64,000 nucleotides of DNA from Elusimicrobia bacterium GWA2_56_46 (lineage in GTDB: Bacteria; Elusimicrobiota; Elusimicrobia; Elusimicrobiales; UBA9959): NCBI GenBank assembly GCA_001799575.1, contig MGTT01000028.1, forward strand, positions 79,274 through 143,273, given 5' to 3'. This document shows positions 4,257-64,000 of the stretch, piece after piece. The position numbers and the translations under genes are program-made. The notes under the pieces were generated by a model, which saw only the letters and a program-made list of their open reading frames with translations, did no database searches and had not been told where the DNA came from. Within the stretch, counting starts at the first letter, position 1. Each line of letters opens with the position of its first letter.

Positions 4257-5060
4257 ATGACGCTGTCATTGCGCCCGCCCTCTTTGAATGACCTGCCGCC
4301 TGTGGCTCGGGGGGTGGTGGTGGCGTGTTTCTGCGGATGGGTGCTGGAACTGGCGTTCGGGGGGGCGCTGAACCATTATTTTGGCCTCGTGCCGGCTAAA
4401 GTTATCGGCTCCGGCTGGCTCTGGCAGCCTCTTACTTACATATTCATACACGCCGGTTTCTGGCACTTCCTCTTTAACGCCTTCATGATCTGGATGCTGG
4501 GCCCGGTAATAGAATCGGCCCTGGGTTCCAGGAAGTTCTTTGTTTATTTCCTGTTCTGCGGCGCGGCGGCGGGACTTTTTACGGTAGCCGTAAGTCCCGC
4601 CTCTCTCCGGCCCGTAATAGGCGCTTCCGGCGCCGTCTACGGGCTTATGTACGCTTTCGCCGCGCTTTATCCGGAGCAGATCGTATATATGTATTTCCTT
4701 TTCCCCATGACCGCGCGCCAACTGGTCGTCTTCCTGGCCGGTCTTTCGCTGATCCTCAGTTTCACCACCCCCAATTCCAGCGTGGCCAACTTCACCCATT
4801 TAAGCGGCCTCGCCGCTGGCTGGTTGTATTTCCACACCGCGGTGTGGCTGGAAAATAGCGCGGCAGGAAGAGTAGTGGCTAGAGGACTCGAGGGCTGGAG
4901 GACTCGCAGCGAGTCACGAGTCACGAGTCACGAAATACAAAACTCCAGAAGGGTTGACGCTATTCTCGAAAAAATTTCCAGTCAAGGCGAAGCCGCCCTT
5001 ACCTCCGCCGAGCGCCGCGAACTGGACGAATACGCCAAAACGCGCGGCGGCCGCGCGTAA
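4257..5060 (+). CDS. Rhomboid-family intramembrane serine protease.
   Basis: The protein has multiple TM helices, the rhomboid motif GASGAVYGL and a conserved His in a later TM. The C-terminal tail contains a (GAGTCAC)x3 repeat. Confidence 0.8.
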   Translation: MTLSLRPPSLNDLPPVARGVVVACFCGWVLELAFGGALNHYFGLVPAKVIGSGWLWQPLTYIFIHAGFWHFLFNAFMIWMLGPVIESALGSRKFFVYFLFCGAAAGLFTVAVSPASLRPVIGASGAVYGLMYAFAALYPEQIVYMYFLFPMTARQLVVFLAGLSLILSFTTPNSSVANFTHLSGLAAGWLYFHTAVWLENSAAGRVVARGLEGWRTRSESRVTSHEIQNSRRVDAILEKISSQGEAALTSAERRELDEYAKTRGGRA

Positions 5061-5370: not shown

Positions 5371-6009
5371 ATGAACATAAAAGACATATGTCGGGAATTC
5401 AGGAAGCTGAAGGGCAAGACCATTGTCGGCCTTACCGGCGCCCCCGCCTCCGGCAAAAGCGCCGTCCTCGACCGGTTCGGAAAGCTGGGCGCTTTTTGCG
5501 TTTCCACCGACGCCCTCGCAAAAGAAGTGTTGACATCCCGGGCCGGTTATAATAGAATTTCTAAGAGTTTTAGTTCCGGGGTATTCCTAAAAGACGGTTC
5601 AATCGACAGAAATAAACTTGCCAAAGAAGTTTTTTCTGACAAATCCAAAAGAAAACGGCTTGAACGCATACTTCACCCTCTAATTCTCGGCCGCGCGCTC
5701 GCTTTAATTGAAAAATCCAATGAAAAGCTGATTATCGTAGAAGTCCCGCTGCTGTTCGAAGCCGGCCTTGAAAAGTGCTTCGCTCTTACGGTATGCGTGG
5801 AGACCCCCGGCAAGCTGCGCCTCAGGCGCGCCGCCGCCAGGGGATGGAGTTCCGGAGAACTCAAGCGCCGAAGCGCGGCGCAGTTCACGGCCGGGAAAAA
5901 AGCGGCCCTGGCGGACGTACTGATAAGCAACGACGGTTCCCTGAAAGACCTTTGGAAGCGGGTGGACTGGCTTCACGGTTTTTTAAAGAACAGACCGGAG
6001 AAAAAATGA
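5371..6009 (+). CDS. coaE: Dephospho-CoA kinase.
   Basis: The P-loop is [11 protein letters not shown]. The size of 212 aa and the family fit CoaE. Confidence 0.85.
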
Positions 6010-7367
6010 CCGACAATTCCGCGGATACAAGGAGAAATCACAAGATGGAAAACAACAACAGCCAGGCCCATGGCCCGAGCAATAATCCCGCCGGCCAGCA
6101 GATGCCCAAAATGGATACCGCGATCCTCTCTAAGATGACCGTGGCGGAACTGCTCAAGATAGCCGACCAGTTCAAGCTTGAGGGCGTTTCCGGCATGCGC
6201 AAGCAGGAGCTTATCGGCAAGCTTATGGAGGCCCAGGCCAAACAGAACGGCATCGTAAAGGGCACGGGCGTGCTGGAGATCCTGCCGGACGGCTTCGGTT
6301 TTCTGCGCTCGCAGGAATACGACTACCTTTCGAGCCATGAGGACATCTATGTTTCTCCCTCCCAGATCAAGAAGCTCGGTCTCCGCAAGGGCGACGAGGT
6401 CACCGGCCTCATCAGACCGCCCAAGGAAGGCGAGAGATTCTTCGCCCTCTTACAGGTTAAAACCGTCAATGGAGTGGAAATAGAAAAGATAATCAACCGC
6501 GACCTTTTCGACAATCTGACCCCGCTGCATCCCAATAAACGTTTTGTGCTGGAAACCGCCAAGAACGAGATGACCGCGCGCGTCATAGACCTTATCTCGC
6601 CCATCGGCAAAGGCCAGCGCGCCCTTATCGTGGCCGCGCCCAAGACCGGCAAGACCATGATCCTCCAGCGCATAGCCAATTCGCTTACCACCAATCACCC
6701 CGACATCGAGCTCCTGGTTCTCCTTATCGACGAACGCCCCGAAGAAGTCACGGATATGAAGCGCTCCGTTAAAGGCACGGTGATCGCCTCCACCTTTGAC
6801 GAACCGGCTGACCGCCATGTGCAGGTGGCCGAGATCGTTCTGGAAAAAGCCAAGCGTCTGACCGAACTGAAGAAAGACGTCGTCATTCTGCTGGATTCGG
6901 TTACCAGGCTGGCCCGCGCCTATAATACCATCTCGCCCTCCAGCGGCAGGGTGCTCTCCGGCGGCCTTGAATCCACTTCCCTTCAGCGGCCCAAGCGGTT
7001 TTTCGGCGCCGCGCGCAACATCGAAGAGGGCGGATCCCTTACCATCATCGCAACCGCGCTGGTGGAAACCGGCAGCCGCATGGACGACGTCATCTTTGAA
7101 GAGTTCAAAGGCACCGGCAATTCGGAGATCTACCTGGATCGCAAACTTTCCGACCGCAGGATCTTCCCTGCCATAGACATCAATAAAACTTCCACCAGGA
7201 AAGAGGAACTGCTGATGAGCGAAGACGAGCTCAATAAGGTATGGATCCTGCGGAAAGTCCTGGCCCCGCTGTCTCCGGTGGACGCCCTGGAACTGCTCTA
7301 CACGAAGCTGGCGGCCACCAAATCGAACAAGGATTTCCTGAAATCCATGGAAATGGCGGGAATGTAA
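6006..7367 (+). CDS. rho: Transcription termination factor Rho.
   Basis: The N-terminal RNA-binding domain, the Walker A motif AAPKTGKT and the R-loop/Q-loop regions are all present. The ATG at 6006 overlaps the coaE stop. Confidence 0.93.
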
Positions 7368-7371
7368 CAGT

Positions 7372-7447
7372 AGTGGCCGGTGAATAGTGGATAGTGGTCA
7401 GTAGTTAAGAATTTTTTTGTTTGCTACTCACCACTTGTCACTGATCA
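7372..7447 (+). repeat. Tandem heptamer array (AGTGGCC GGTGAAT AGTGGAT AGTGGTC AGTAGTT) followed by an inverted partner (caccacttgtcactgatcactg). It lies downstream of rho and ~65 bp upstream of the M23 peptidase start.
   Basis: The 7-nt periodicity can be read directly. The motif recurs at 63785-63825 and, on the opposite strand, at 23522-23549. Confidence 0.7.
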
Positions 7448-7470
7448 CTGTTTTTAACGGGAGGCTGACA

Positions 7471-12225: not shown

Positions 12226-12314
12226 CTGGATTCAAGATTGCGGAGTGGTTTTTTTCTTAATCTTAAATCTGGAATCTTAAATCCGGAATCCGGCCGGATT
12301 TTGAATTTACTTTT

Positions 12315-23367: not shown

Positions 23368-23521
23368 AAATCCATAACCGCCCAGGTCGCCAGGTTCATG
23401 GTTAATCTGAACAGCCGCTTTCAACCGGTCATTTAGGGTTTACACGGATTGCAATTGTTATATAATTGAGTGCGGGAATGTGGCTATGAGCGACCACTGC
23501 TATAAAACTTGATTTCTTGCC

Positions 23522-23549
23522 GCCCACTGACCACTGATCACTACCCACT
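23522..23549 (-). repeat. Tandem heptamer array. On the minus strand it reads AGTGGGT AGTGATC AGTGGTC AGTGGGC. It sits in the divergent promoter region between the polyprenyl synthase gene and the large membrane protein gene.
   Basis: The reverse complement of 23522-23549 shows the same AGTGGNN period as 7372-7406 and 63785-63825. Confidence 0.65.
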
Positions 23550-44247: not shown

Positions 44248-44892
44248 TCACACTGCCGCTTTCAGGAACTCCGCTTCGCTTTTGGCGGCTAGTTTCATAT
44301 ATATATTATATTCCTTTTGTGCGCCGATGGTGGAAGTGTCTCCATTGTATGAGTGGCCGGGGTAGAGCTCCGTCCCGTCCGGCAGAGCGGCCAGTTTTAG
44401 AAGGCTGCGGCGCAGCGCCCGCGGATCCGAGCCCGGCAGATCCGCGCGGCCGCACGCTCCGACGAAAAGCGTATCTCCGGAGAAGACGGCTCCCTCCGCC
44501 AGGTAGCAGACCGAGCCGGGGGTATGCCCCGGAGTGTGGATGACCTCTATTTTAACACGTCCGATCTCCAGCTCTTCGTCCCCGGCCAGCAGAGTCAGAG
44601 GGCCGATGCCCGGCTCCAGAAGAAAAGTATCTTCCTTATGTACGGTCAACGCCAGTCCCTTATCTTTTCCGAGAAAATAACGCGCGGCATTTGCATGATC
44701 CGGATGGGCGTGCGTGAGCAGGAGGAGCCTGACGGAAAGTTTCTCTTTCCGCAGGAATTCTTCCACGGTCTCCGGCTGCCAGGCCGGGTCGATGACAGCG
44801 GCCTCTTTCAGACCCTTATCCCAGACAATGTAGGAGAAATTGTCCATGGGGCCGAGCTTCAGCTGTTTTATTCTTACTGTTTTTTCCCTCAT
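44248..44892 (-). CDS. MBL-fold metallo-hydrolase (glyoxalase II-like).
   Basis: HAHPDH motif. The start codon is embedded in a heptamer repeat. Confidence 0.82.
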   Translation of the reverse strand: MREKTVRIKQLKLGPMDNFSYIVWDKGLKEAAVIDPAWQPETVEEFLRKEKLSVRLLLLTHAHPDHANAARYFLGKDKGLALTVHKEDTFLLEPGIGPLTLLAGDEELEIGRVKIEVIHTPGHTPGSVCYLAEGAVFSGDTLFVGACGRADLPGSDPRALRRSLLKLAALPDGTELYPGHSYNGDTSTIGAQKEYNIYMKLAAKSEAEFLKAAV

Positions 44893-44912
44893 CCTTCATC
44901 CTTCATCCCTCC
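44889..44912. repeat. Heptamer simple-sequence repeat. On the plus strand it is (TCATCCY)x3; on the minus strand it is GGATGAA GGATGAA GGATGAG. It overlaps the start codon and RBS of the MBL hydrolase gene.
   Basis: Read on the minus strand: aagggaggg ATGAAGG ATGAAGG ATGAGGGAAAAA. This gives three ATGs 7 nt apart, and only the third is in frame with the ORF. Confidence 0.7.
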
Positions 44913-44913
44913 C

Positions 44914-45192
44914 TTATTTGGGAGGGGGGAAACGGTATTCGATTTCGTCGGGTCTGACCAGGCCGAGTTCTTTGCGGGCCATGTGTTCGATCCGGCCGGG
45001 TTCTTTCATTGTCCTAAGCCGTGTTTCCAGACGGATCTTTTCCGCCTCGAACTTCACTTTCTGGTTTTTCAGCCGGCGGTACTCCAGCGAGTTCCGGATC
45101 AGGGTTCTGAATCCTCTGTTGGACAGCAGGAAGAGGGCCATCAGGAGCAGGACGGCGTATTTCAGCCTGGCGCTGTGTTTTTTTAACTGCAT
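44914..45192 (-). CDS. ftsB: Septum formation initiator family protein (FtsB/DivIC-like).
   Basis: The protein is ~92 aa with an N-terminal TM helix followed by a coiled coil (EYRRLKNQKVKFEAEKIRLE...). Confidence 0.7.
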   Translation of the reverse strand: MQLKKHSARLKYAVLLLMALFLLSNRGFRTLIRNSLEYRRLKNQKVKFEAEKIRLETRLRTMKEPGRIEHMARKELGLVRPDEIEYRFPPPK

Positions 45193-49236: not shown

Positions 49237-49639
49237 ATTTTCTCCTCTAAGTTTAAGTTCCACATCTTGTTTTGATATCTGTCGCCCATAGTAAACCTTG
49301 TTGCGTTACTATAGTTTAGCCTGTAAAGAAGTTCCCACCAAGAGTCATAAGACCCAATCGTTTTTTTTTGACTAATTTCACCTGGGCCTTTCGGTCCGTA
49401 AAATATAGGTGCACAAACATGGTTGTCGGGTTAGTTGCCTCGTCACACCGGCGCAAGTCGTTCGGCATACCGGCGAAAGCCGCTATCCAGCATTAGGAAT
49501 ACCTGGATTCCGGCTTGCGCCGGAAAGACGACTTGGGCTTATGTGAGCTTTTGGGGATAACAGGTAAGGCAAAATCTCCTTGGCGGGAAAAATGCTAAAA
49601 TAAATCGTAGATTTTGTGCGCTAAATAGTGGGAAGAGAG

Positions 49640-49724
49640 CCCGGGTGCTGTAACTGGTAGCCAGAGCTGACTTAAAATCAGCTGGAGGTTTCCTCCGTGT
49701 GGGTTCGAGTCCCACCCCGGGCAT
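49640..49724 (+). tRNA. tRNA-Leu (anticodon UAA), type II with a long variable arm.
   Basis: Acceptor GCCCGGG/CCCGGGC, anticodon loop CTTAAAA, variable stem GGAGG/CCTCC, T-loop GTGGGTTCGAGTCCCAC. There is no encoded CCA. Confidence 0.85.
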
Positions 49725-52691: not shown

Positions 52692-53744
52692 TCAGCGGTT
52701 CCGGAGACCGTCCAGGGATACCGACAGTTTGTCGCTTTCAAGCAGCGCCGCTTCCAGCACCAGTCCGTGAGAAACGTTCTGGTTCAGGAACCGGCGGTAT
52801 TCCATAAGTTTACCGATCAGGGCCGCATAGGCGCGCGCGCTCCCGCCGGGGGGCTGCGCCAGCCAGCGTTTTCTGGCGGAAACCAGCAGCATCTCCAGCA
52901 TGAGCTTCGCTTCCTCGCGCGCCAGATAGGGTTCGCGGGGAAGGCTTGAGACCAGTTTGAAAATTTTGGCCGGGCCGGAAGCCGCGATGCCTGCAAGCCG
53001 GTCGCGGACCTTTTTGATATCGACGGCTTTTTTTACCGAGCCACCCGACAGTTCGCTCAGGACGGAAGCTTCGTCCAGCGTCATGCCGTCCCTTTCCAGA
53101 AGCTCTTCCACCGCCGCGGCGGAAAGCCGCGTGAATTCCACGGCGTAGCTCCGGGAGATGATGGTCGGAAGGAGCAGGTTTTTCTTGGCGGCGATAAGGA
53201 GGAAAACGGTGCCGGGGGGCGGTTCCTCAAGAACCTTTAACATCGCGTTCTGGGCGTTCGCGTTAAGCGTGTGGGCGTCGTTTATAATAAAGATCTTCCA
53301 CTCGGAGAGAATGGCTTTTTGGTAGACATGGCGCGTGAATTCCCTTACGGTGTCGATGCGCAGGGTCTTCTGTTTCCGGGCGTCCTCTTCAAGAAGGAGC
53401 CCCTGGAATTCGGAGTCTATGATCCTCACGTCGGGGTGCACACCTTTGTCGATCTGCGAGCAGGAAACGCACCGGCCGCAGGCGTCTTCAGAGGGATGAG
53501 GGATGAGGGATGAGGGATGAAGGGGGGAGCCGGAGGAGGGGGCGAAAAGGTCGTCTTCGGGTTTTGGTTCCTGCCGGGGGGTGTGGGTGCAGTTAAGAGC
53601 TTTGGCGAATTCTTTCGCCGCCAGGAATTTACCGGTCCCTTCGGGGCCTGAGAACAGAAGCGCGGGCGGTACGCGCCCGCCGGAGACGAGGGCCTTAAGT
53701 TTTTTTATCGCGCTTTCGTGGCCGAGGATGTTGTTGAAAGACAT
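52692..53744 (-). CDS. holB: DNA polymerase III delta-prime subunit.
   Basis: There is an AAA+ N-terminus (LLFSGPEGTGK) and a Zn module. A Pro/Ser-rich insertion is encoded by a heptamer repeat. Confidence 0.85.
   Translation of the reverse strand: MSFNNILGHESAIKKLKALVSGGRVPPALLFSGPEGTGKFLAAKEFAKALNCTHTPRQEPKPEDDLFAPSSGSPLHPSSLIPHPSEDACGRCVSCSQIDKGVHPDVRIIDSEFQGLLLEEDARKQKTLRIDTVREFTRHVYQKAILSEWKIFIINDAHTLNANAQNAMLKVLEEPPPGTVFLLIAAKKNLLLPTIISRSYAVEFTRLSAAAVEELLERDGMTLDEASVLSELSGGSVKKAVDIKKVRDRLAGIAASGPAKIFKLVSSLPREPYLAREEAKLMLEMLLVSARKRWLAQPPGGSARAYAALIGKLMEYRRFLNQNVSHGLVLEAALLESDKLSVSLDGLRNR
53493..53520. repeat. Heptamer tandem repeat (GGGATGA)x4 inside the holB coding sequence.
   Basis: gggatgagggatgagggatgagggatga. 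On the coding (minus) strand it encodes ...HPSSLIPHPS... Confidence 0.8.
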
Positions 53745-58423: not shown

Positions 58424-58495
58424 TGCGCCCGGCGCGATTCGAACGCGCGGCCACTCGCTTAAAAGGCGAATGCTCTACCCCTGAGCTACGGGCGC
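58424..58495 (-). tRNA. tRNA-Lys (anticodon UUU).
   Basis: The reverse complement is GCGCCCGTAGCTCAGGGGTAGAGCATTCGCCTTTTAAGCGAGTGGCCGCGCGTTCGAATCGCGCCGGGCGCA, with anticodon loop CTTTTAA. Confidence 0.85.
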
Positions 58496-63069: not shown

Positions 63070-63789
63070 ATGTTCGCAGAGGGTTATATCGGCGTGGCGG
63101 GTCTTATCGGCGTGGGAAAGTCCACTCTCACCATGGAGCTGGCCAAGGCCCTCAATTTCGAGCCCGTGCTTGAGGAAGTGGGCGGCAATCCCTACCTGGA
63201 AAATTTTTACGGCGACATGAAAAAATACGGAACCATCATGCAGATCTGGCTTCTGAACCACCGCTTCCGACAGCACCGGGAGTTCGTTTCCAGGATAAGT
63301 CTCGGCAAGATCCGCGGCGTGGTGCAGGACCGCACCATCTGGGAAGACACGATCTTCGCGCGCATGCTGAACCAGCATCCCGACAAGATCATAAGCGACA
63401 TGGATTATAACACCTACCTGGATCTCTTCGACAACATGGTTCTGCGCGAGCTGGTGTTTCCGCAGCTGCTGATCTTCCTGGATTGCCGCGTGGAGACGTC
63501 CATAGAACGGATAAATTCCCGCGGCCGCAACATGGAAAAAGCGATCGAAGCGGACTATCTGAAGAGTCTCCAGGAGAACTATTACCAGTTCATCGAAGAG
63601 ATGGAGTCCGCCGGCGTCAGGATCCTGCGGCTCAACTGGGAAAATTTCCAGCCGATAAGCGAAGTGGTGCGCCTCGTGAACGAGTACTCGCTTAAACCGT
63701 CCAATTTTACGAAGTGGGTCCGTCCGTTGAGGAAGATGGGGATGGAAAATAAGGCCAACCTGCCCAATAAGATCACGGTGGCTAAGTGA
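63070..63789 (+). CDS. Deoxynucleoside kinase (dGK/dCK family).
   Basis: The P-loop GLIGVGKST, an ERS-like motif and the dNK fold are present. Confidence 0.78.
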   Translation: MFAEGYIGVAGLIGVGKSTLTMELAKALNFEPVLEEVGGNPYLENFYGDMKKYGTIMQIWLLNHRFRQHREFVSRISLGKIRGVVQDRTIWEDTIFARMLNQHPDKIISDMDYNTYLDLFDNMVLRELVFPQLLIFLDCRVETSIERINSRGRNMEKAIEADYLKSLQENYYQFIEEMESAGVRILRLNWENFQPISEVVRLVNEYSLKPSNFTKWVRPLRKMGMENKANLPNKITVAK

Positions 63790-63825
63790 GAGTGGTCAGT
63801 GATTAGTGGATAGTGGTCGGTGGGG
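63785..63825 (+). repeat. Tandem heptamer array (AGTGAG AGTGGTC AGTGATT AGTGGAT AGTGGTC GGTGGGG). It overlaps the dNK stop and lies ~42 bp upstream of cmk.
   Basis: The 7-nt periodicity can be read directly, and the motif is the same as at 7372-7406. Confidence 0.7.
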
Positions 63826-63866
63826 AAATAGAAACCGCTTACCCGGGTAACGACAGAATAATTCAC

Positions 63867-64000
63867 ATGGGAAAACGTCCGAAAGGCATCATTGTGGCGA
63901 TAGACGGGCCGGCCGGTGTCGGCAAGTCCACCATAGGCAGGATGGTGGCCTCAAGCCTTGGCTACAGCTTTATAAGCACCGGGAAAATGTACAGGGCGCT
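63867..64000 (+). CDS. cmk: Cytidylate kinase, 5' part (the gene continues past the window end).
   Basis: [20 protein letters not shown] is the CMP kinase P-loop. Confidence 0.85.

Follow-up and report, generated by a model that had tools for sequence, protein, structure and literature searches.

AGTGRNN heptamer arrays at ORF boundaries of an Elusimicrobium: fixed polarity and rapid turnover

Tandem heptamer arrays of the AGTGRNN type lie at three gene boundaries in the DNA analysed here, a stretch of 64,000 nucleotides from an uncultivated Elusimicrobium (the window). The reading that we favour, with a probability of about 0.55, is that these arrays are simple-sequence elements of fast turnover, arising at the boundaries of open reading frames (ORFs) by slippage or template switching and kept in a polarity that translation tolerates. 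They are this Elusimicrobium's version of the class of heptamer spacers to which the STRR, GGGAATC and TAACTGA repeats belong.

The three heptamer arrays described in the initial annotation were confirmed, and their arms are as follows:

7372-7406, + strand: array 1, 5´ arm, five AGTGRNN units (AGTGGCC, GGTGAAT, AGTGGAT, AGTGGTC, AGTAGTT)
7407-7421, + strand: A/T-rich loop region separating the arms of array 1, its apical part weakly paired in the predicted fold
7422-7449, − strand: array 1, 3´ arm (inverted partner), units AGTGATC, AGTGACA, AGTGGTG and AGTAGCA, CACT-type on the + strand and convergent with the 5´ arm
23522-23549, − strand: array 3, four AGTGRNN units (AGTGGGT, AGTGATC, AGTGGTC, AGTGGGC)
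63785-63825, + strand: array 2, six units (AGTGAG, AGTGGTC, AGTGATT, AGTGGAT, AGTGGTC, GGTGGGG)

A search of the 64-kb window with AGTGNNNAGTGNNNAGTG, allowing at most one mismatch, returned 10 matches against 0.05 expected, a number reached by none of 100 shuffled sequences. All ten belong to the four arms at the three loci, which lie after rho, after dNK and before a DUF4175 gene. The tandem 7-nt direct repeats are longer than expected by chance, and their dispersed copies show a strong intergenic bias, with all four arms in the 64 kb being intergenic. Furthermore, an autocorrelation scan that makes no use of the motif detected 8 period-7 stretches in the window (0.4 expected), and the excess at period 7 is larger than that at every other period, multiples of three included.

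The composition of the units is uneven. Over 19 units, positions 1 to 5 (AGTGR) carry 1.0–1.9 bits each and positions 6 and 7 around 0.2 bits, and agreement between adjacent units at these last two positions does not rise above chance. Arrays 1 and 2 have an exact 15-mer in common, TAGTGGATAGTGGTC, and AGTGGATAGTGGTC is found again in the relative L161. The window is also matched by contig MGUC01000017.1 (GCA_001799775.1), and its Rho is identical to the Rho of 'Elusimicrobia bacterium GWA2_56_46'.

Array 1 begins 2–5 nt 3´ of the stop codon of rho (TAA 7365-7367; the gene was identified by Pfam) and precedes an M23 peptidase gene that starts at GTG 7471. It had been suggested that the array and its inverted partner form a long hairpin. 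This agrees with the predicted fold, an imperfect hairpin of 73 nt spanning 7378-7450, with a free energy of −32.7 kcal/mol and z = −3.3. Two short features separate it from the peptidase gene:

7451-7455, + strand: T5 run directly 3´ of the array 1 hairpin, giving a terminator- or attenuator-like layout
7459-7464, + strand: Shine-Dalgarno-like GGGAGG, between the T5 run and the M23 GTG start

The likeness to intrinsic (Rho-independent) terminators consists of a hairpin followed by T5 right after a stop codon. However, the stem of array 1 is long, G+C-poor and interrupted, and its loop region is large. A simple scan for terminators and promoters around array 1 called nothing. Folded as predicted, the two arms of array 1 may act as an attenuator or as an mRNA stabiliser between rho and the peptidase gene; the hairpin plus U5 would attenuate read-through or protect the 3´ end of the rho mRNA.

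Array 2 overlaps the dNK stop and precedes cmk, as had been described: the stop codon TGA 63787-63789 is part of its first unit, and the cmk ATG lies at 63867, 42 nt past the array end. One pipeline placed the start of cmk at a GTG within array 2. The folds of arrays 2 and 3 are no better than those of shuffled sequence, with array 2 showing a weak stem at 63815-63843 in which its final units pair with CCGCTTACC. Array 2 would act as an unstructured spacer inserted in an otherwise overlapping dNK–cmk junction.

Array 3 had been described as a reverse-complement array upstream of a polyprenyl synthase gene, within the divergent region shared with a 1065-aa gene. Its orientation and its divergent setting stand, but the array is nearer to the other gene. 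On the + strand it reads CCACTGA CCACTGA TCACTAC CCACT and, in this CCACT sense, lies 10 nt 5´ of the start codon (ATG 23559) of the 1065-aa DUF4175 gene, whereas the start of the polyprenyl synthase gene is 98–155 nt away (23424 for the longest ORF, or 23367). Array 3 is therefore a better fit to the start of the DUF4175 gene, in antisense, than to the polyprenyl synthase gene. One further feature stands upstream of it:

23439-23466, + strand: sigma-70-like promoter TTTACA-16-TATAAT, a match to 11/12 consensus positions only

Given this promoter, recognised by its consensus match, array 3 is likely to lie within the 5´ UTR of the DUF4175 gene, which it would supply with an unstructured leader devoid of a Shine-Dalgarno sequence. 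All three arrays have the same polarity, with distances of 5, 0 and 10 nt on the 5´ side (arrays 1, 2 and 3) and, on the 3´ side, the 42 nt of array 2 and the 98–155 nt of array 3 already given. Rfam at gathering thresholds returned two tRNAs only in the window and nothing at the arrays.

Comparison with relatives indicates that the arrays turn over rapidly. The synteny of the rho region is kept in three relatives, L125, L126 and L127. L125 and L126, with Rho identities of 98% and 94%, have unrelated spacers that lack the array, and rho and the next gene abut in L127 (Rho 86%). A further relative with an identical 453-aa Rho (L209) has a spacer of ~20 nt without array 1, versus ~100 nt in the window. 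For dNK, 80 relatives were recovered from metagenomes, most of which have a dNK stop that overlaps or directly adjoins the start of cmk. A ~57-nt block including array 2 is missing from L128, whose dNK is ~100% identical. In L139 (dNK 91%) the same junction carries an array of TTCGCTA/TTCACTA units (AGYGAAT-type), which has the opposite orientation and ends at the cmk ATG, and in L144, L161, L170 and L138 other hairpins built from 7–9 nt repeats stand right after the dNK stop codon. Different units, in either orientation, have colonised the dNK–cmk junction independently of one another.

The variation seen is whole-block presence or absence, in clean blocks of ~57 and ~88 nt between near-identical strains. 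No copy-number polymorphism of array 2 was detected, its sequence being identical in five contigs. Moreover, the 21 kb of syntenic sequence in a sister species contain 0 period-7 arrays, as against ~8 per 64 kb here. Since the arrays are absent in close relatives and array 2 is identical among its carriers, they are recent, lineage-specific gains.

These data contradict the proposal that the arrays are cis-elements of the three downstream genes. Strains whose flanking proteins are identical or nearly so lack arrays 1 and 2, as do sister species with conserved synteny, and L139 has the oppositely oriented array at the dNK–cmk junction. Operator repeats for a response regulator were likewise rejected, because the arrays are absent at orthologous junctions and two of the three lie in operon junctions right after stops. 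For annotation purposes, it is better not to treat the arrays as common regulatory sites, and gene callers can be misled by them.

The family extends well beyond this genome. At least 120 stretches of AGTGRNN x4 were found in GTDB genomes, where ~17 would be expected (our own arithmetic, assuming uniform base composition), and at least 120 in IMG/VR. The GTDB matches listed span Planctomycetes, Pyrinomonadaceae, Verrucomicrobia, Bacteroidia, Chloroflexi, Cyanobacteria and others. This adds a family with an AGTGR core that occurs in phage contigs and in many phyla besides that of the uncultivated Elusimicrobium. Gene positions in this survey were assigned by a purpose-built codon log-odds caller, checked on the window, and its start codons are uncertain. 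Intergenic arrays make up 128 of the 136 listed across phyla and 173 of the 184 listed in phage contigs.

The initial annotation held that in every case the AGTGG orientation agrees with that of the downstream gene. This does not hold among the matches listed: at co-directional junctions, AGTG-sense and CACT-sense arrays number 31 versus 28 across phyla and 66 versus 59 in phage contigs. In the window, "in every case" is true only if array 3 is ascribed to the farther of its two genes.

What is fixed is a polarity relative to the ORF end: the G/purine-rich strand has its 5´ end next to a stop codon on the same strand or a start codon on the opposite one. Among the matches listed, a same-sense stop precedes the 5´ end of the AGTG strand by a median of 7 nt in genomes and 3 nt in phage contigs, and an opposite-sense start lies 15–22 nt from that end, a value biased low by ORF over-extension. 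On the 3´ side, the next gene is 72–105 nt away among the same matches. At convergent junctions, solo arrays are closer to the same-sense stop in 16 of 18 listed cases.

The inverted arms obey a comparable rule. An inverted partner lies downstream of 32 arrays in genomes and 48 in phage contigs, and upstream of 2 and 0, respectively, among the matches listed; in period-7 pairs collected independently of the motif, the purine-rich arm comes first in 25 versus 3. Comparable heptamer hairpins are 58–200 nt long, and their arms are complementary at the variable positions too (63%). A T-rich tail is present in 5 of 23 such hairpins only, which argues against heptamer hairpins in general being canonical terminators. 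The most regular case is the phage contig L247, in which nearly every junction of the structural operon reads stop, AGTGGYC x3-5, loop, GACCACT x5-11, ATG, mostly without a Shine-Dalgarno sequence.

Heptanucleotide repeats in bacteria have been on record since 1990, the STRR among them having the units CCCCAGT, TTGGTCA and CAACAGT; to our knowledge, neither a function nor a generating mechanism has been established for such repeats. According to Mrazek (2007), as cited in PMC4679880 and PMC4692102, in many bacteria no long simple repeat is more strongly over-represented than heptamers, and polymerase slippage has been proposed as their origin. Rehm et al. 2015 (PMC4692102) described heterogeneous units with a conserved core, GGGAATC in Xanthomonas and GGGGA(C/T)T in Nostoc PCC 7120. 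These GGGAATC/GGGGAYT repeats are 89–93% intergenic, form 70–75 convergent pairs and lie at a mean distance of 28 nt from the 5´ ORF versus 160 nt from the 3´ ORF. The same study found equal use of the coding and non-coding strands, poor conservation between Xcc and Xac and no regulatory role, and it proposed a G-quadruplex for the heptamers.

The AGTGR arrays share most of these properties: a tandem 7-nt build, a core with free positions, ~90% intergenic location, typically ~4 units, convergent inverted pairs, a G-rich strand whose 5´ ORF is near and whose 3´ ORF is far away, equal strand use, poor conservation between close species and neighbours of all functional classes. The polarity and chirality measured here are not new in kind, matching the rules published for GGGAATC/GGGGAYT (PMC4692102). 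The differences, beyond the Elusimicrobium host, are the AGTGR core and its runs of GG only, which do not allow a canonical three-tetrad G-quadruplex; the arrays were consequently rejected as G-quadruplex-forming repeats, lacking at least four runs of at least three G with short loops. New are therefore the AGTGR core, the breadth across phyla and phages and the inability to form this structure. The polarity rules known from G-quadruplex-type repeats hold without G-quadruplex potential, which weakens the G-quadruplex explanation and points to a cause at the ORF boundary.

The STRR are, as cited in PMC4692102, dispersed tandem heptanucleotides of heterocystous cyanobacteria (Calothrix PCC 7601) whose function is not established. 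The STRR-type likeness noted earlier for the arrays is apt at the level of the class, since they form a non-random dispersed family of tandem heptanucleotides, and Nostoc and Scytonema genomes also have AGTGR-type arrays. However, STRR are cyanobacterial by definition, and with AGTGRNN units in an Elusimicrobium the arrays do not belong to STRR in the strict sense. In Nostoc, according to a preprint, the heptamer repeats found upstream of recF and recO have modest effects in reporter assays.

A third comparison concerns the TAACTGA arrays of MacGregor 2015 (PMC4679880), which stand directly before start codons that have no ribosome-binding site. They occur in marine Beggiatoaceae, cyanobacteria and Bacteroidetes, and S1, Csp and CsrA have been proposed as their readers (PMC4679880). 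Both kinds are heptamer arrays of 2–6 copies, and array 3 shares ACTGA and the position 10 nt before an ATG; arrays 1 and 2, in contrast, have the opposite sense and follow stop codons. The Beggiatoa repeats have perfect units and comprise 169 direct cases and 1 inverted (PMC4679880).

Under the favoured reading, new arrays would form, and existing ones change, through slippage or template switching in a 7-nt register where ORFs begin or end, and only those in a polarity compatible with translation would be retained. Being rich in UGA/UAG stops and GUG codons, the AGUGR strand would do no harm behind a stop codon. Neither start codons nor Shine-Dalgarno-like runs occur in the YCACU strand, which would be harmless or even favourable before a start. 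Any effects on expression would be local by-products and not a common regulatory programme.

Several observations go against the slippage view. The AGTGR core is kept while positions 6 and 7 are free, although a decaying microsatellite would lose all positions equally; a conserved core with a free tail looks more like a recognised motif. Tolerated junk is unlikely at nearly every junction of a compact genome, as seen in L247. The 15-mer common to arrays 1 and 2 hints at copying rather than independent slippage, and unit-by-unit slippage was not observed for array 2 in its five identical contigs. Because the conserved core, the shared 15-mer and the phage with arrays at all junctions are poorly explained by the slippage view, two rival explanations stay alive, one based on translation and the other on REPIN-like mobility.

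The first of these, clearly the less probable reading but the strongest competitor, is that the arrays are functional translation devices, coupling or gating the downstream cistron without a Shine-Dalgarno sequence. The AGUGR arm would lie in the footprint of the terminating ribosome and the YCACU arm over the next start, with termination melting the hairpin. Solo arms would be post-stop or leader elements, and the reader may be a binder of ~7-nt single strands (cold-shock domain, S1 or KH). The spacing suits such a device, the 5´ arm starting 0–15 nt after stops and the 3´ arm ending 3–25 nt before starts, as do the conserved core with its free tail and L247, in which hardly a junction is without the hairpin and most have no Shine-Dalgarno sequence. 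The TAACTGA repeats, whose ACTGA is present on the + strand of array 3, also precede starts without ribosome-binding sites (PMC4679880). Among the matches listed, a Shine-Dalgarno match is present at 9 of 55 array-adjacent starts versus 569 of 1862 other starts at the same loci, a depletion that is partly trivial because the array fills the space of the site.

Against a translation device, conservation is absent even between strains, and a good Shine-Dalgarno sequence stands downstream of array 1, the sole hairpin among the arrays of the window. Convergent junctions, which have no downstream start, show the same polarity. Rehm et al. saw no regulatory effect for GGGAATC (PMC4692102), and a binding protein for the arrays is not known. 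In its broadest form, the idea would be that heptamer hairpins are a widespread gene-boundary device that works without a Shine-Dalgarno sequence and couples or insulates translation, possibly via a universal ~7-nt factor. This proposal is tentative and on the whole improbable; if true, it would explain the period of 7, the fixed polarity and the phages with an array at nearly every junction of the structural operon.

REP elements can stabilise or attenuate mRNA, and many of them also sit right after stop codons. REP and REPIN are conserved sequences of 20–40 nt that are moved by a RAYT transposase (e.g. Bertels and Rainey 2011, PMC3116915). The arrays resemble REP, BIME and REPIN elements in being extragenic imperfect palindromes, often inverted pairs after stops, that vary between strains; they differ in that their arms are made of degenerate 7-nt units and their copies share only the core. 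It is conceivable, though doubtful and less probable than a role in translation, that the arrays belong to the miniature mobile elements (REP/REPIN or MITE type), with a dedicated transposase reading inverted heptamer ends on ssDNA and inserting them beside ORF ends.

Mobility of this kind would account for the clean ~57- and ~88-nt presence/absence blocks between near-identical strains, for the convergent, inverted arms with complementary variable positions and for the location right after stop codons. The 15-mer TAGTGGATAGTGGTC in arrays 1 and 2 and the recurrence of AGTGGATAGTGGTC in L161 also favour it, and the outer ends of array 1, CAGTAG...CTACTG, recall the GTAG motif of REP. However, no full-length element or internal sequence is conserved among the copies, which have no common flanks or loops, and the arms differ freely in length and units. 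The strain junctions compared show no target-site duplication. In addition, many unrelated heptamer units act alike within one clade, and arrays are also found in-frame within coding linkers. A conserved palindromic unit of the REP/REPIN kind was rejected, the copies sharing the AGTGR core and at most a 15-mer.

The two remaining explanations are effectively excluded. Phase variation, in which the arrays would be contingency repeats switching neighbour genes, has in its favour the presence of tandem repeats near gene ends and the heptamer repeats of Haemophilus, which are reported to cause phase variation. Nevertheless, the heterogeneous units suppress slippage, variation is by whole blocks, array 2 is identical in five contigs, and the neighbours rho, dNK and cmk are housekeeping genes. 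The arrays lie neither between promoter elements nor in frames that changes in unit number could shift, and the result of Rehm et al. for GGGAATC was equally negative (PMC4692102). A chance likeness of three unrelated spacers, which the small number of loci could suggest, is refuted by the 10 matches found where 0.05 were expected, by the specific enrichment of period 7 and by the same core in four arms and in relatives.

Other candidate readers and sources were also considered. Pairing of GUGRUC with the 16S rRNA 3´ tail GAUCAC fits AGTGATC and AGTGGTC only, and not many other units. Rho loading at YC dinucleotides on the CACU strand, DnaG priming at CTG/CTA, HutP-like readers of UAG-N4 and, as a source of the convergence, telomere-like repeat addition healing double-strand breaks were all unsupported.

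Finally, the window contains heptamer families with other units:

4910-4933, + strand: CGAGTCA x3.4, in-frame in the linker of a rhomboid protease gene, with an inverted GGACTCG arm upstream at 4885-4908
12256-12294, + strand: period-7/14 repeat AATCTTAAATCCGG x2.3 running into the palindrome AATCCGGCCGGATT, in the spacer between an EPSP-synthase-family gene and a Mur-ligase gene
44885-44908, + strand: TCATCCT/TCATCCC x3.4 (GAAGGAT/GAGGGAT on the − strand), ~40 nt upstream of a metallo-beta-lactamase-fold gene (ATG 44846, − strand)
53491-53520, + strand: perfect GAGGGAT x4.3, inside holB (DNA polymerase III delta´), on the non-coding strand

The GAGGGAT tract of holB has the G-quadruplex feature defined above, and it is a nearer sequence relative of the GGGAATC/GGGGAYT family of Rehm et al. 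than the AGTGR arrays are. It encodes a loop that splits the DNA_pol3_delta2 match. An origin of the tract as an insertion in holB was not supported, as a relative has a loop of equal length with degenerate 7-periodicity. Three further period-7 arrays were found in 10 kb outside the window. Coding linkers are the home of two of the 7-periodic families in the window, those of the rhomboid protease gene and holB, and the linker of a Tricorn-like protein is encoded by differing heptamer arrays in four relatives.

Heptamer repeats were also encountered within coding sequences. The Tricorn-like protease gene, located about 6 kb past the end of the window, contains one linker that is encoded in-frame by heptamer arrays differing among four relatives. 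The array units found across these four linkers are GAGACAC, CGAGTCA, AGTAACC and an AGAAGAC/CTGACCT inverted pair, and this linker appears to be a hot spot for heptamer repeats in coding sequence. The arrays and the two further genes carrying such repeats, both in the window, are as follows:

L001 16082-16117, Tricorn-like linker array
L128 7088-7132, Tricorn-like linker array
L139 16339-16399, Tricorn-like linker array
L161 16325-16407, Tricorn-like linker array
4257-5060, rhomboid gene
4885-4933, inside the rhomboid gene, CGAGTCA x3.4 preceded by an inverted GGACTCG arm
52692-53744, - strand, holB (DNA polymerase III delta')
53491-53520, non-coding strand of holB, perfect GAGGGAT x4.3 tract

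The repeat in the rhomboid gene, including its inverted arm (fold z = -4.3), encodes the linker joining the Rhomboid and DUF6576 domains, and the corresponding linker of the sister species is unrelated in sequence. The holB tract, which is G-quadruplex-capable, encodes the loop PLHPSSLIPHPS of delta', which separates the P-loop from the cysteine cluster. In a relative with 78% identity (L136), the delta' loop is equal in length and the 7-periodicity of CCCTC is only degenerate.

Two spacers and the divergent region upstream of the DUF4175 gene hold additional features:

12256-12294, period-14 repeat and palindrome AATCCGGCCGGATT, spacer between an EPSP-synthase-family gene and a Mur-ligase gene
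44878-44935, TCATCCT/TCATCCC array adjoining a short CCCTCCC/GGGAGGG hairpin
23439-23466, + strand, sigma-70 promoter match close to the consensus (TTTACA, 16 nt, TATAAT)

The equivalent EPSP-synthase-family/Mur-ligase spacer of the sister genome (L125, 17065-17200) carries a GCTAGAC-type repeat hairpin, and that of a third relative (L127) measures just 3 nt. The - strand of 44878-44935 contains a purine-rich block, GGGAGGGATGAAGGATGAAGGATGAGGG, about 40 nt upstream of a metallo-beta-lactamase-fold gene; a comparable TCATCCC array occurs at L001 17877-17917. The candidate sigma-70 promoter, identified by its match to the consensus, is directed towards the DUF4175 gene.

With their many GTG triplets, the arrays can lead start-codon prediction astray. 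The cmk start chosen by one annotation pipeline is a GTG within the array at the dNK-cmk junction (window 63813, corresponding to L001 10744), 54 nt upstream of the ATG in the NCBI record. The rho ORF (window 5775-7367) is extendable to 530 aa, then overlapping the coaE gene; database entries call Rho at 418-456 aa, and its N-terminal extension is variable within the clade. Rfam matches in the window are confined to two tRNA genes (49639-49723 and 58424-58495).

Finally, the entire 10-kb locus of the phage contig IMGVR_UViG_3300047586_000106 (L247) is a structural module of tape-measure-like and tail genes. In almost all of its intergenic junctions, an AGTGGYC arm followed by a longer GACCACT arm, with a short loop separating them, accounts for the whole sequence. 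The GACCACT arms stop 2-6 nt upstream of the ATG, and a Shine-Dalgarno sequence is usually absent. The AGTGGYC/GACCACT junction pattern was also noted in two other loci, L263 and L269.
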